In this document: positions 8,929 through 15,903 of the stretch, one piece after another
How positions within the stretch are numbered: the stretch's first letter is position 1
Layout: every line of letters begins with the position of its first letter
Virus record (IMG/VR): IMGVR_UViG_3300026549_002494
Coordinates: 8,468 to 72,467 of that record
Length of the DNA stretch: 64,000 bases
Direction: 5' to 3' (one strand)
From: a virus
Lineage: Duplodnaviria > Heunggongvirae > Uroviricota > Caudoviricetes
Made by a program: the position numbers and the translations under genes
The notes under the pieces: generated by a model
What the model saw: only the letters and a program-made list of their open reading frames with translations
The model's database searches: none
Told to the model about the DNA's origin: nothing

Positions 8929-8992
8929 CTTAAAAATTCTGAAACATATTTACTTCTGATAAACATTTTAACATAATAAGGAAAAATATGTA

Positions 8993-9021
8993 TTGACATT
9001 TTTTGATAAACAATATATAAT
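8993..9021 (+). promoter_or_regulatory. Consensus sigma-A promoter driving plus-strand cargo operon
   Basis: TTGACA (8993-8998), 17 nt, TATAAT (9016-9021); SD AGGAGG before ATG 9053. Confidence 0.85.
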
Positions 9022-9052
9022 ATAAGCAAGAAATTAATAGGAGGGAACTTTT

Positions 9053-10228
9053 ATGAAAAAAGGATTTAATAAATTATTTGGTATAATTTGTGCTATAACA
9101 ATGGTATTAACAACAATAATACCTATTGCACACGCTGAAAACGATATTAGAGTGGTAATGAATGGAAAAGAGATACAATTTGACGTCCCGCCGCAAATTG
9201 TAGATGATTATACTATGGTGCCGGTAAGAGCTATTTTTGAAGCTTTAGGATATACTGTTAAATGGATACCTGAAGCACAAATGATTGTAGCAATAAATCA
9301 AGAAGCAGATAGAGCTATTTTGATGAACATCAATATCACAGTAATAGTAGCTGGTTCTTATAAAGAACTTTTGAACGAATACAATAATAACAACAAAGAT
9401 GTTACGAACTATTTTCAAAAAAATAGTTATTTAATAGAAAAGGCGCCTGTTATTATTAATGAAAGAACTCTTGTGCCCGTGCGCGTAATCGCAGAAGCAA
9501 ATGGGTTTATTGTAAATTGGGAACCATTTACTCAAACAGTATCGCTTAATTCGGGTGGAAAATCATCTTATTTTTCAACATACTCTTCATTTTATGATGA
9601 GGCACCTACATTATATTCTTTTGCTAATATCTTAGACAGAAAAGAGATAAAGAAATCCTTTGATGCTTCGAATGGATTTTATACATATGTATATTACTTA
9701 ACCGACGTAGAAGACCCTTCTATTTTTGCTAAAAGATATGTAGATTATTTAACAAATGATGGGTATTATATAACTCCAAACAAAAATTCGAATAATACTA
9801 TATTAATTAATTATGTTAACAATATAATTATAAGTGTAAGTACGATGACAAATCCAAATGGAATAATTGTTATTTTTGGTTCACCATCTGTTCTATCTAA
9901 TAGCACTATAACCGAACCTGTAAATGAACACAATATGGAAATAGATAATGAAATACAAAAAACTCAGCAAGAAATCAAAAGGTTAAAATCTAAAATAAAA
10001 ACCATAAAACAAGAAATTGACAATAAGACTACAGAAATGAATAATGTTGCAAAAAGTAGTGATGTTCGAGTAGTTATGGGTGGTCGCATTGGACAGTCGG
10101 GAGATCCAGATAAAATACAACAAATTCAAAATGAAATTGATGAATTAAATGTTGACTTAAGATATTATGAAGAATTACTGGATAATGAGCAAGAATATTT
10201 AAAGAAATTGCAACTCTCATATGAATAA
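9053..10228 (+). CDS. Secreted protein with copper-amine-oxidase-N (stalk)-like domain and C-terminal coiled coil
   Basis: Signal peptide ending AHA; typical Clostridial stalk motifs IRVVMNGKEIQFDVPPQIVDDYTMVPVRAIFEALG and PVIINERTLVPVRVIAE. Confidence 0.75.
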   Translation: MKKGFNKLFGIICAITMVLTTIIPIAHAENDIRVVMNGKEIQFDVPPQIVDDYTMVPVRAIFEALGYTVKWIPEAQMIVAINQEADRAILMNINITVIVAGSYKELLNEYNNNNKDVTNYFQKNSYLIEKAPVIINERTLVPVRVIAEANGFIVNWEPFTQTVSLNSGGKSSYFSTYSSFYDEAPTLYSFANILDRKEIKKSFDASNGFYTYVYYLTDVEDPSIFAKRYVDYLTNDGYYITPNKNSNNTILINYVNNIIISVSTMTNPNGIIVIFGSPSVLSNSTITEPVNEHNMEIDNEIQKTQQEIKRLKSKIKTIKQEIDNKTTEMNNVAKSSDVRVVMGGRIGQSGDPDKIQQIQNEIDELNVDLRYYEELLDNEQEYLKKLQLSYE

Positions 10229-10260
10229 GTAATACTCTATACCAAAGGAGGAACTTTGTT

Positions 10261-10752
10261 TTGAAGAGATATTGCTATATCTGTAAGGAAACAATTGATA
10301 ATGATAAAATTACTGTATGTCCTGTATGCGGATGTGAAAATTCTTTATGCACCTCTAAAGACGAGGAAGAATTGCTTAGGGCGGGGTATAAAATAACTGA
10401 TTTAGAACGCATGAAGCAATTAAAAGAAGAAAGCCCGGATACATATAGTAAACAGATACAAACTCAAAAAGATAAGACAGAAAAGATTGAACTTAAACAA
10501 TTACGTGATTATCAAGCAATGAAAGAACTCACCAAAGCACTGAGAAAGTGGGATGAAACTAAGAAAAAGAAAGAGCCAGAACCACAACCTACAACTCCGC
10601 AAAAATATGTCGTGCATTGTCCATATTGTCAATCTCCCAATGTACATAAAATTGGTTTCGGCGAAAGAGCAACATCTGTTTTTATGCTCGGGCCGTTCAG
10701 TAAGAAAATTAATAAAAGTTACCAATGCAAAAATTGCAGGGCGACATGGTGA
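10261..10752 (+). CDS. Zinc-ribbon protein
   Basis: CxxC pairs at both ends; C-terminal CPYCQSPNV...CKNC motif common in phage accessory genes. Confidence 0.7.
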   Translation: MKRYCYICKETIDNDKITVCPVCGCENSLCTSKDEEELLRAGYKITDLERMKQLKEESPDTYSKQIQTQKDKTEKIELKQLRDYQAMKELTKALRKWDETKKKKEPEPQPTTPQKYVVHCPYCQSPNVHKIGFGERATSVFMLGPFSKKINKSYQCKNCRATW

Positions 10753-10761
10753 GGTATAGTT

Positions 10762-13305: not shown

Positions 13306-13914
13306 TTACTCCAAGCAAAAAATTTTACAACCATATTCATCAATGTAAGGTATCTTTAAATGTCTCAGACGCTCTTTCATAACATTAGTTGAAACTGCAA
13401 ATTTTTTTGCTAAATCTGTTACTTGAGGCAAGGTATTCAAATACTCCATCGAAAGAACGCCTCTTAATTCTGTAATTGGTATTAGTAACTCTCCAGCAAA
13501 TATATTTGCTTCGATTTCACGTGTATCTGTTACACTTCCATCGTGGCGTAATTCAATATATGGCATAGATTCTTCTTCTAAATGTGCCAAACAACAATGA
13601 GCCAATTCATGAGCAAGAGTATATCTATTTCGATTTTTTGTTTCACTATTTCGATACAATAAAGCTAAATCAGTTTCATCAGCGATCATGGCACCAAGAA
13701 TCCTATTTTCTAAATTATCATCATCATATTTAGAAAAATCATAAGGTAATACTCTTATTTTCATTTGATAAAGTATTTTAGCGATATCTATTGGATAAGT
13801 ATTACGTTTAGGGTTCCAGTATTTATTTAAGATGTCTTCTGGTGTTAATCCATTTAATTCTTTTAACTTAGTACACATTTTAAATTCCTTCAATCTGTTA
13901 TTGTGGCACTCCAT
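13306..13914 (-). CDS. ImmA/IrrE family metallopeptidase
   Basis: RNRYTLAHELAH (HExxH) and EIEANIFAGELLIP motifs. Confidence 0.85.
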   Translation of the reverse strand: MECHNNRLKEFKMCTKLKELNGLTPEDILNKYWNPKRNTYPIDIAKILYQMKIRVLPYDFSKYDDDNLENRILGAMIADETDLALLYRNSETKNRNRYTLAHELAHCCLAHLEEESMPYIELRHDGSVTDTREIEANIFAGELLIPITELRGVLSMEYLNTLPQVTDLAKKFAVSTNVMKERLRHLKIPYIDEYGCKIFCLE

Positions 13915-14214
13915 TATATTCTCCTATCCGAGTAACATATATCTTATATAATTAATAGTATGCTTGGCATACTTAGAAATATGTAGTGTCTTAATAATGA
14001 AGCACCAATTATATTTATTAAAAAAACAAAAAAACCATAGTCCAAAGACTAAGGTTCACTATAAAAAATTACCTCGATAGGATTTATAAATAACCTATTG
14101 TCTTTGGTAGTCTATATTATACCATAAAAATGCATAAAATTCAATAGCGTTCACGGTTTTTTACAACATATTTATCATTATGTTATAAATTTTATTTTTC
14201 ATCCACTTTGTATT

Positions 14215-14482
14215 TTATATCAAGCCGAGTACATTGATGGAAAAATAACTAATACTCGTGATATGAAGATGATATTTTGTGATATTATTAACATTACTTG
14301 GACTGAGTACGCCTTCCTTGGCTTTATTATCCCCGACAATTTGGGATGTAACCAAAAAAGGAGCCGAGAAAATTGGATTAATATCTATCAGAGCATTGAG
14401 TAAGCTTGCCTCAAAAATTGCGGATAATATTATTTCTGACCCAACAACAATAGCTAAAATAGCTGGATTGTTGTTAAATTAA
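14215..14482 (+). pseudogene. Frameshifted, 5'-truncated DUF2513-like gene remnant
   Basis: One frame reads IINITWTEYAFL, then shifts to ..SPTIWDVTKKGAEKIG.., matching the usual ITWxGHEFLDxxRxxTIW pattern. Confidence 0.45.
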
Positions 14483-14507
14483 AAAATCTCCCCTTGGAGA
14501 TTTTTTA
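14483..14507. terminator. Bidirectional intrinsic terminator
   Basis: AAAAAATCTCC-CCTT-GGAGATTTTTT between convergent genes. Confidence 0.75.
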
Positions 14508-15131
14508 TTAATGTTCTCGTGGAAGAAAATAACCTTTGATACAAGCAGGAGTTCTTACACAAACTTGAATATGAGATTTTTCTTTTATCTCTGTACCGGC
14601 AAAAGCAATGTCTCCTTCCTGAAAATATCCATACACCGTATCAAATTTAATGTTTCTTTCCTTCATAATACGATGTAGATTTGTTATAACGGCACAATCT
14701 AATGGTCTCATTAGATTGAAACCTCCTTTATCAGGTGAAGTGTTTTTATAGTGCTCATTAACATCCATCCCTAACTCTAAAAAACTTTGCTTTAAAATAT
14801 TATAACTTTTTTGCAGAAGTAAAATAGAATTTCGTTCACAAAAATTTAAACACAGTCCAAGATTAATAATAGCTCCAATAACATAAGGTTCTTTAATTTT
14901 TCTTGAATTTCGCTCATGCACGTCACAAGCCCACTCATAAGCACGCTGCGGGTCATTGAGCCAGAAATATATGCCATCTCCTAACCAATCATAAGTATTT
15001 GTACTGGGTTTAAGATGTTTATTTGGAGAATTTAATATATCTATAGCAACAGATTTGTCACATCCATGAAACCCAATAACCGTTTGTGCAGCTTGTTGAT
15101 ATACATATGAATCATATTTATCTTTAGTCAT
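14508..15131 (-). CDS. ADP-ribosyltransferase-fold-like protein (putative toxin)
   Basis: GFHGC...SxNxYDWLGDGIYFW...HIQVCVR pattern, typical of small ART-like (DUF3990-related) proteins. Confidence 0.55.
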   Translation of the reverse strand: MTKDKYDSYVYQQAAQTVIGFHGCDKSVAIDILNSPNKHLKPSTNTYDWLGDGIYFWLNDPQRAYEWACDVHERNSRKIKEPYVIGAIINLGLCLNFCERNSILLLQKSYNILKQSFLELGMDVNEHYKNTSPDKGGFNLMRPLDCAVITNLHRIMKERNIKFDTVYGYFQEGDIAFAGTEIKEKSHIQVCVRTPACIKGYFLPREH

Positions 15132-15321
15132 TATTCTTACTACTTGTTTTAATAATTATATTCTGATATGCTTTTTTTATTTGATTTTGTGCATCTAAAA
15201 TTCCACAATTGCGTAGAATTTCCTTCGCTTCTCCAGATGAAATTCTTTTCGTAGGAGAATTAATAACACTCACAATAGTTTCATTTATAGCCTTCATATG
15301 ATCAACTCCCATCTTACACAT
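15124..15321 (-). CDS. Small protein overlapping the ART-like gene, possible antitoxin
   Basis: 65 aa, 8-nt overlap with downstream start; promoter-like TTGTAA-17-TAGAAT upstream on minus strand. Confidence 0.6.
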   Translation of the reverse strand: MCKMGVDHMKAINETIVSVINSPTKRISSGEAKEILRNCGILDAQNQIKKAYQNIIIKTSSKNND

Positions 15322-15903
15322 AAATCATATCACCTCTATTTCTAAATGTCAATAATTTTTTATGAAAAAAATGATAAAAATATTCTAATATTTTGATAAA
15401 TTTTTTACAACATTATCTGTTTTCAGAAGTCAGCATAATATTGTACACAACAACTTGGTTTCCCAAGGTTCGGACTGTCTTTCATAACGAAATATAATTA
15501 CGCCCATATTTCGTCAAACCTTGTCAGTCTCTGGGGGTTAAGGCGTATATAGCATTGTGAACTATATAATATTCTTACGAACTTAGCCTTTCCCTGCTTT
15601 CGGTATAAAATTACCTACCTATTGATTACCCATTCCTTTTTTTTATAAAAAGCATAAATTGTTACTTAGGCTCTCACCATATAACATATTATATACATTT
15701 CTTTCTGATTTTCATCACCATATCATTTGTCGTTTCCAACTCTGTTTTGGTTCGTATATAATCTTTAGGGTTCCCAGCATATTCGGTTTATATTTTATTT
15801 GGTCTCTGTTTTTTATAAAAACACTCCCGTTCGTTAATTATATGGCATTGTTACATAATCTTAAAGGGGTGGGCGCAATACAGTATTTTGGAACCGTAAG
15901 TTC

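Follow-up and report, generated by a model that had tools for sequence, protein, structure and literature searches.

Group I introns in which coding sequence separates the ribozyme core from its 3′ splice site are known from two kinds of element. IStrons (such as CdISt1 of Clostridioides difficile and CboIStron) are fusions of a group I intron with an IS200/605 or IS607 element; the ribozyme core lies at the 5′ end, coding cargo precedes the remote 3′ splice site, 3′ RNA structure affects the use of that site, and the host is a Firmicute (PMC3984707; PMC10690162). The cargo of an IStron is a transposon (tnpA/tnpB and ωRNA) of about 1.5–2 kb on the sense strand, and the element transposes. In T4 nrdD (sunY) and similar phage introns, the core is likewise followed by an open reading frame (ORF) and the 3′ junction is remote from the core, with one endonuclease gene as cargo and a total intron length of ~1 kb; the biology of T4 introns is reviewed in PMC2988022. 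Here, we turn to a temperate phage whose hosts are gut Lachnospiraceae-like bacteria, and to its tape-measure gene. The DNA analysed, termed the window, comprises 64,000 nt of a 136,467-bp IMG/VR record (IMGVR_UViG_3300026549_002494) that is classed as a provirus with an estimated completeness of 78%. In the window the tape-measure gene is split by an interval of 6975 nt, which is probably a bona fide group I intron using a distal 3′ splice site in the tape-measure gene.

Compared with IStrons, the tape-measure introns hold 3–10 kb of accessory cargo on both strands, with promoters and terminators of its own and no transposase found, and their site is fixed in one structural gene. IStron cores belong to subgroup IA2, whereas the tape-measure core is without the P7.1/P7.2 insert between P7, P3′ and P8. 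Compared with T4 nrdD-type introns, the intron in this phage and its relatives carries up to ten genes in 3.2–10.9 kb, no homing endonuclease is recognised, and a covarying loop–loop tether is present. Organellar trans-spliced group I introns are similar in that their halves lie far apart and are reassembled by base pairing, but those halves come from separate loci and are necessarily transcribed separately; the two halves of the tape-measure intron share a strand and follow each other in the correct order, which makes splicing in cis possible. The 3′-terminal pairings of T4 nrdD (sunY), the subject of Michel et al. in Genes Dev in 1992, reportedly activate and position its 3′ junction. To our knowledge, bacterial and phage group I introns are compact and carry at most a homing endonuclease or a small IStron transposon, and a full-text literature search found no description of such a cargo-carrying intron. 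The layout is shared with IStrons and T4 nrdD; the tape-measure introns differ in the size of the cargo (3–11 kb), in its nature (unrelated accessory, defence and toxin–antitoxin genes, with no mobility gene recognised), in the fixed site within a structural gene and in the covarying tether.

The divided tape-measure gene and its proposed ribozyme core

Two minus-strand ORFs some 7 kb apart, 15838..20121 (1427 aa) and 1885..8883 (2332 aa), encode the two parts of the tape measure; this split, from which the original prediction for this DNA set out, was found again. The frame of the downstream ORF is open further upstream, to 8928. Among annotated tape measures, exon 1 has matches in Brevibacillus, Enterocloster and Bacillus phages (22–29% identity, tblastn), and the NlpC/P60 domain of exon 2 (table 1) is also found in the C-terminal parts of many Gram-positive tape measures. 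The breakpoints fall between 15904 and 15903 and between 8929 and 8928. Exon 1 ends in CTTGGT (15909–15904) and exon 2 starts with GCCTTACAGTAT (8928–8917); the G at 8929 and the in-frame virtual join, ...NHVGLG/ALQYDSETNSWG... (slash, junction), are as originally predicted. Unspliced, the exon 1 frame continues 22 codons into the intron to a stop at 15838.

Relatives, whose loci are given L numbers, were gathered by protein-guided and sequence-pattern scans of IMG/VR, metagenomes and a genome collection. The scans yielded 16 IMG/VR loci, and an invariant 19-mer of the core (CCCAGAGACTGACAAGGTT) occurred in 13 IMG/VR, 21 metagenome and five genome-collection stretches. Two of the last five are contigs of Lachnospiraceae or Acetatifactor metagenome-assembled genomes, which stop 0.4–0.8 kb from the core and leave the intron 3′ ends outside them; the remaining three, and at least one of the metagenome stretches (L041), contain the 19-mer by chance and lack the core. 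In the GenBank phage collection, the core (blastn) and exon 2 residues 1–450 (tblastn) had no match, and exon 1 (tblastn) matched distant tape measures only.

Uninterrupted homologues are collinear with the joined exons. An ORF of L001 (7631–14464, 30% identical to exon 1) extends 1239 aa beyond the junction point, and the protein P0031 (2545 aa, PF10145) aligns with the virtual spliced protein in a single blastp segment across the join at residue 1406 (E 6e-57; residues 1006–2131 against 57–1068). A multiple alignment has no indel at the join, which reads ...NHVGLG/ALQYD... in the window, ...GLRGVG/IFDYF... in L001 and ...IKGFL/ALK... in P0031. Intact tape measures that fail to align over the junction had been named at the outset as grounds for abandoning the intron; L001 and P0031 do align there. 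At the distal side, 10 distinct 3′ ends were compared, and in all ten the exon 2 protein homology begins at the first exon codon, A(V/L/I)QY(D/N)(S/T)(E/K), with stop codons a few codons upstream.

The ribozyme core follows the equivalent of exon 1 residue 1406 in all relatives wherever the flanks are readable. Over the first ~460 nt of the interval, the window and L007–L015 share 81% DNA identity, against 45% for the flanking tape-measure protein; the rest of the interval is not shared. In a core alignment of 12 sequences from about seven lineages (A2), the elements occur in the canonical group I order P3-J3/4-P4-P5...P5′-P4′-P6-P7-P3′-P8-J8/7-P7′-P9, with the P3/P7 pseudoknot arrangement. 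RNAalifold predicted 97 pairs for this alignment, 39 of them with compensatory changes. A scripted recount of the 97 pairs found standard pairs in 98.2% of cells and compensatory changes in 42 of the pairs, whereas a shifted control, with 3′ partners moved by one to three columns, gave 32–44% of cells paired and 2–8 compensatory pairs. The full group I core claimed to lie directly after exon 1 is thus borne out by its canonical order and by conservation and covariation in relatives; because the elements recur and covary there, they are beyond chance.

The same comparisons make it very improbable that this is a defective prophage, in which insertion of the island destroyed the tape-measure gene and the RNA-like features are relics. 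The provirus class, the estimated completeness of 78% and an RNA-library coverage limited to the cargo would fit such a history, but both exons are intact frames (1406 and 2347 codons) and the ends are kept while the cargo differs. Moreover, the arrangement occurs in more than 40 contigs from many samples, and RNA covariation and conserved exon frames point to purifying selection.

Predicted splice sites and long-range RNA pairings

The internal guide sequence has the letters first read there, and the weak P1 with a terminal U-G pair that was proposed from them is flanked by a covarying pair at intron position +1. In the window, U15904·G15874, G15905-C15873 and G15906-C15872 are joined by intron G15903-C15875, and RNAalifold pairs alignment columns 19–22 with 60–63, with the U·G precisely at the predicted site; the helix is short and contains the U·G wobble of a P1. 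At +1, the window, L032, L035, L036 and L058 have G-C, L007 and L033 have A-U, and L031 and L045 have A·C; 10 of the 12 sequences have G-C or A-U. A general 5′ splice site 6 nt upstream (between 15910 and 15909), for which GCCCA pairs perfectly with UGGGU in the L007 lineage, was rejected: GGU alone is conserved there, whereas the +1 pair covaries. Close to P1, exon 1 GGUCUU (15912–15907) pairs with intron GAGACC (15806–15801), and GGUAUU with GAUACC in other lineages. It is possible that GGU(A/C)UU/GA(U/G)ACC forms a second exon-binding helix stacked on P1; the change from A-U to C-G is one evolutionary event and so a hint only.

At the distal site, a terminal G (ωG) precedes exon 2 in all ten 3′ ends. 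The P10 guide stretch lies immediately 5′ of GCCC, adjoining the P1 part, and its partner is each lineage's own exon 2. The P10 of 8+2 bp that had been predicted across 7 kb holds in the window and is kept in four lineages with different sequences (table 1), with a two-sided change at position +4 (G-C in L007 and L033, A-U in L032). The same guide bases also pair locally, with intron positions ~+5 to +12: UACGGU/ACUGUA in the window, GUACA/UGUAC in L007 and ACGUUU/AAACGU in L032. Exchange between a P1 extension and P10 is usual in group I introns. A hairpin also spans the splice site, with intron UCAGAAU paired to exon 2 AUUCUGA at +14 to +20, so that the terminal G8929 and the P10 bases sit in its loop; this pairing is kept by compensatory UUAGAAUC/GAUUCUAA in L012 and by a different sequence in L032.

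These features bear on whether distal splicing occurs at all. Two separate tail proteins might instead be made, ORF 2 from an internal start, with either a ribozyme that uses a proximal 3′ site and gives ORF 1 a short tail, or a structured 3′ element that does not splice. Such an arrangement could draw on a TTG at 8883 in the window, which is the first in-frame start after a homology onset without a start codon, on a TTG immediately before the junction in L007/L009-type relatives, on a sigma-70-like TTCAGA-18-TATGAT over the 3′ junction (8943–8914), and on the absence of an Rfam hit to the core. We nevertheless regard it as decidedly unlikely. The P10 pairing with the distal exon shows covariation and the terminal G does not vary; the sequence after P9/P9.1 is not conserved between lineages, which argues that they share no proximal exon; and uninterrupted homologues fuse both parts. 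In the relatives, homology starts exactly at the junction and exon 2 has no in-frame ATG, GTG or TTG in its first 30 codons and no Shine-Dalgarno sequence.

A further contact links the core to the 3′ end. A 3′-terminal hairpin ~20–30 nt before the end of the intron has the loop UC(A/G)GAAG, on a stem that varies yet pairs: AUGUUUA/UAAAUAU in the window, AUAACUA/UAGUUAU in L007, CAUCUG/CAGAUG in L032 and AUUAUUG/CAAUAAU in L033. The complement in the core, CUUC(U/C)GA, lies in the loop of the post-P9 hairpin in the window and L007 lineages; in L031–L036 and L058 it is instead part of an internal loop, in a hairpin that is inserted into the P5 extension. The combination is CUUCUGA/UCAGAAG in the window and L032, against CUUCCGA/UCGGAAG in L007 and L033; with U-A in the one pair of loci and C-G in the other, loop–loop covariation occurs in both architectures. 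The features of the 3′ end make sense for an RNA seeking a remote 3′ splice site, and not for an intergenic region before an independent gene.

Other introns of the clade provide points of comparison. The capsid group I intron of the same phage also lies in a late structural gene, and two of its stretches, P3-J3/4-P4-P5 (UGCUGG.AA.CCCUAAAGA) and P5′-J5/4 (AAUGGG.AAUCA), are nearly identical to the tape-measure core. It is compact and reaches 89.5 bits with the Rfam group I model RF00028, whereas the tape-measure core is unscored and has a far larger P5 extension and an added hairpin before P4′. Our own covariance model of P6–P9 (R1) detected a diverged cousin of the core at 35.6 bits (E 1e-5) in L003 and L004, which in L004 lies ~200 nt past the tape-measure exon end (~11535); the equivalent tape-measure site in a second phage clade holds a related intron. 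The tape-measure genes of relatives also have extra interruptions of 300–520 nt with frame changes, at exon 1 residues 1134/1135, 1214/1215, 1094/1095, 1215/1216 and 1293/1295, that are not in the window; the one in L008 matches RF00028 (26.4 bits, E 4e-4). The tape-measure gene is an intron hotspot in this clade.

Table 1. Features of the split tape-measure gene, its proposed intron and related elements (positions in the window unless a locus is named)
Feature	Position	Strand	Details
Tape-measure exon 1	15904..20121	-	1406 codons; TMP core region; terminal Gly-rich hydrophobic segment
Tape-measure exon 2	1885..8928	-	2347 codons and stop; NlpC/P60 lytic domain
Whole proposed group I intron	8929..15903	-	6975 nt: core, P9.1 hairpin, cargo, 3′-terminal RNA elements, final G8929
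Internal guide sequence	15869..15886	-	P10 part ATACTGTATTGC 15886–15875; P1 part GCCCAC 15874–15869
Catalytic core P2–P9	15454..15868	-	alignment, RNAalifold, covariation
P2/P2.1	within 15454..15868	-	follows P1; P2 covaries
P3	15789–15785	-	AAACC; partner GGUUU ~15522–15518; invariant
P4	after J3/4	-	UGCU/AGCA; invariant
P5	after P4	-	ACCC/GGGU; covaries
Long P5 extension	after P5	-	three GNRA-capped hairpins, all covarying
P6	after P4′	-	GGG...CCC; inner stem covaries
P7	around P3′-P8-J8/7	-	GACUG/CAGUC; invariant
P8	15514–15487	-	12 pairs, covarying
P9	15468–15454	-	CCUUGG-GAAA-CCAAG; GAAA-capped hairpin, covarying
P9.1-like hairpin after P9	15408..15443	-	11-nt loop holds ACUUCUGA (15430–15423), complement of 3′-terminal loop
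3′-terminal hairpin	8946..8966	-	AUGUUUA/UAAAUAU, loop UCAGAAG(U) 8959–8952
Hairpin across 3′ splice site	8906..8945	-	intron GUUUCAGAAUU (8945–8935) with exon 2 GAUUCUGAAAC (8916–8906)
P10, window	15886–15875 (guide)		guide AUACUGUAUUGC, exon 2 GCCUUACAGUAU; 10/12 pairs (2+8)
P10, L007			guide UGUACUGU, exon 2 GCAGUACA; 8/8 pairs
P10, L032			guide GUAUUGC, exon 2 GCAAUAC; 7/7 pairs
P10, L033			guide UACUGU, exon 2 GCAGUA; 6/6 pairs
Cargo island	9053..15352	both	ORFs, promoters, terminators
Secreted Cu_amine_oxidN1-domain protein	9053–10228	+	Pfam
163-aa Zn-ribbon protein; 124-aa ORF	cargo	+	
M78/ImmA-like peptidase	13306–13914	-	also best PADLOC match, capP
209-aa membrane protein; 65-aa, 207-aa, 69-aa and 180-aa ORFs	cargo	-	
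Sigma-70-like promoters, strong	15352–15324, 14144–14116, 12054–12026	-	
Sigma-70-like promoter, strong	8993–9021	+	12/12 matches
Terminator-like site	14507–14480	bidirectional	
Terminator-like site	~14020	sense	
Terminator-like site	12298–12273	-	
Capsid group I intron	31104–31464	-	major capsid region; compact; RF00028 89.5 bits, full length
Cousin P6–P9 core	L003 13946–14065; L004 11724–11843		R1 match
Extra tape-measure interruptions	L008 4488–5003; L049 1915–2291; L003 9530–9835, 10199–10543, 10778–11221		

Cargo genes and their expression

Nine ORFs of at least 60 aa, on both strands, were counted in the interval, close to the ten or so genes first proposed. Pfam scans covered 10 window ORFs and 20 cargo ORFs from relatives, whose cargo includes a Zeta toxin, an M78 peptidase, a Bro-N/ANT antirepressor, GmrSD_N nucleases, an AAA_21 ATPase, a LytTR regulator and a P63C protein. 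Among the scanned cargo ORFs there is no transposase or TnpB family (a weak Zn_ribbon_IS1595 match fell below the cut-off) and no LAGLIDADG, GIY-YIG, HNH, His-Cys or PD-(D/E)xK homing endonuclease, with several small ORFs family-less. Intron lengths are 3231, 3315, 3317, 3504, 3505, 4083, 4088, 4160, 4196, 5032, 5083, 5274, 5623 (L033), 6975 (the window) and 10883 nt (L032), and no empty version was seen among them. In near-identical phages, the first ~1310 nt and the last ~575–640 nt are common and the middle has been exchanged; L042 corresponds to L007 with 1.75 kb inserted. The comparison with related phages that had been suggested therefore came out as anticipated, with variable cargo (3.2–10.9 kb) between conserved ends and P1/P10 kept.

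Another possibility is that site-specific excision removes the island from the DNA ahead of late expression, as happens with developmentally excised elements, and leaves a short ordinary intron or none. The phage has two tyrosine recombinase genes elsewhere in its genome, and one DNA run (X1) has joints from 9079 to 14007 and from 14035 to 15359. However, the cargo contains no recombinase gene, a search for direct repeats flanking the island found none, rejoined DNA would have no need of the RNA elements at the two ends of the interval, and the X1 joints, with sides shorter than 30 nt, are unreliable; we consider excision extremely improbable. The X1 contig itself (428 nt, depth 4.8 against 18 for the main contig) touches 9079/14007 and 14035/15359 with sides of 21–22 nt, and could stem from a strain whose cargo is much smaller or be an artefact of repeats; joints with sides below 30 nt are flagged as unreliable, and these were set aside as evidence of excision.

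Transcripts of the cargo are present in X2 and X3, two bovine-gut metatranscriptome runs of one sample, in which 52–53% of sampled words occur. RNA contigs 100% identical to the window cover 14303–15306, 12544–14034, 11208–11998 and parts of 9045–11054; a further library (X18) holds a relative that is 90–95% identical. The X2/X3 contigs are confined to 9045–15307, which says nothing on silence of the tail gene or on splicing. Several RNA contigs start near predicted promoters, and these starts, with the provirus status, fit expression of the cargo from its own promoters.

Within the cargo, the Rfam L10_leader family matches 14018–14125 on the minus strand (47.8 bits; gathering score 44), between the promoter at 14144–14116 and the M78 gene. 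The match ends in a terminator-like hairpin and U run, and the RNA contig 12544–14034 begins within it; it is probably a leader or attenuator and not a ribosomal-protein leader. The promoter/5′-leader regions 12016–12056 and 15314–15354 are 73% alike over 41 nt, a likeness which suggests that two cargo modules are regulated in common or share an origin. Elsewhere in the prophage are a Pistol ribozyme (58313–58380, plus strand, 63.3 bits; gathering score 34.5), a FuFi-1 RNA (44910–45150, plus strand, 59.9 bits; gathering score 59.6) and phage-encoded tRNA-Met and tRNA-Gln (47923–47997 and 48092–48168, both minus strand). One of the two tyrosine recombinase genes of the provirus is at 42249–42821 (minus strand), the other outside the window.

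The terminators and convergent genes inside the interval make splicing in trans a live alternative, with the same ribozyme and the same sites. The exon 1-core RNA would end at a cargo terminator, a second transcript would consist of the 3′-terminal hairpins and exon 2, and the two would be assembled through the loop–loop pair and P10. Sense-strand terminator-like sites and convergent transcription favour this arrangement, and the covarying contact of 7–8 bp could hold two RNAs together. Trans-splicing in vitro has been reported for the halves of a split T4 td intron, and organelles have group I introns that are naturally spliced in this way. On the other hand, no conserved promoter was found just upstream of the 3′-terminal hairpin (TGnTAAAAT in the window, with relatives differing), a 7–8 bp contact and P10 make a small interface for an efficient bimolecular reaction, and phage late transcription commonly passes terminators. 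We hold trans-splicing to be unlikely, and a group I intron spliced in cis, on a late transcript reading through the cargo, to be most likely.

A splicing model and its implications

The proposed intron is grounded in sequence anatomy, conservation, covariation, variable cargo and collinearity with uninterrupted homologues. Late transcription would cover the whole interval, and the core (about 450 nt, directly after exon 1) would fold first. The loop–loop pairing of 7–8 bp, ACUUCUGA with UCAGAAGU, would then draw the distant 3′ end to the core, and P10 (guide AUACUGUAUUGC with exon 2 GCCUUACAGUAU) and the terminal G8929 would position the 3′ splice site. Two transesterifications would link ...NHVGLG to ALQYDSE... 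and yield one tape measure of ~3750 aa (predicted ~420 kDa), with the predicted ligated RNA ...CUUGGU/GCCUUACAG... and a predicted tryptic junction peptide ending ...NHVGLGALQYDSETNSWGSAYLDFFR. The exchangeable accessory island would lie between the post-P9 hairpin and the small 3′-terminal hairpin, and be expressed independently of the tail gene. We infer the catalysis, the transcription in cis through the cargo and the role of the loop–loop contact.

A number of observations weigh against this reading. The search with group I covariance models that the original prediction proposed did not go its way: Rfam RF00028 gave no hit in 8700–16100 even at E≤10. At the gathering score it gave no hit on the tape-measure core in the window or seven relatives; and at E≤1 in L008 it left the tape-measure core unscored while detecting a neighbouring 517-nt tape-measure intron (26.4 bits). 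The missing hit, which we record as a negative membership test, may reflect a limit of the model for a group I variant, likely because of the large P5 extension and the extra hairpin before P4′. R1 in turn misses the capsid intron and hence provides no bridge to a validated group I intron. P3, P4 and P7 are without variation, so that they are supported by complementarity and canonical position and not by covariation. P1 is weak, with three pairs plus the U·G, and for the L007 lineage the better pairing is that of an in-frame 5′ site 6 nt upstream, which may be used in some lineages. Sense-strand terminator-like sites and convergent plus-strand genes, driven by the perfect promoter match at 8993–9021, mean that an uninterrupted 7-kb precursor needs read-through. 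No RNA contig joins 15904 to 8928, the coverage being of the cargo and not of the exons or core; splicing is thus deduced from the DNA. Finally, no intron-less allele was found: a degenerate 18-mer of the ligated junction had 54 matches in IMG/VR, none of them in a tape-measure gene.

A more far-reaching combination is conceivable, in which the intron is at once a landing platform, a site of distance-independent splicing through a kissing-loop tether, and a gate on the tape-measure mRNA; as a whole we hold it tentatively and think it rather doubtful. As a landing platform, the intron would have defence, toxin–antitoxin and regulatory cassettes swapped by recombination between the conserved RNA ends; the tether would free splicing from the distance between core and 3′ site, so that kilobase cassettes are exchangeable. 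As a gate, cargo terminators and convergent promoters would block tape-measure mRNA in lysogens, with release by late antitermination or trans-splicing, and the expression of accessory genes would be coupled to virion assembly.

If the gene is spliced as predicted, a self-splicing intron can hold 3–11 kb of independently transcribed, unrelated genes on both strands within an essential gene. A covarying loop–loop tether together with P10 would then be a simple RNA means to locate a 3′ splice site kilobases away, and engineered introns with large inserts may be designed on the model of the tether. Split tape-measure genes of this type are likely to be mis-annotated as two genes or as defective prophages, and the intron would represent a previously unrecognised type of hotspot for phage accessory and defence genes.

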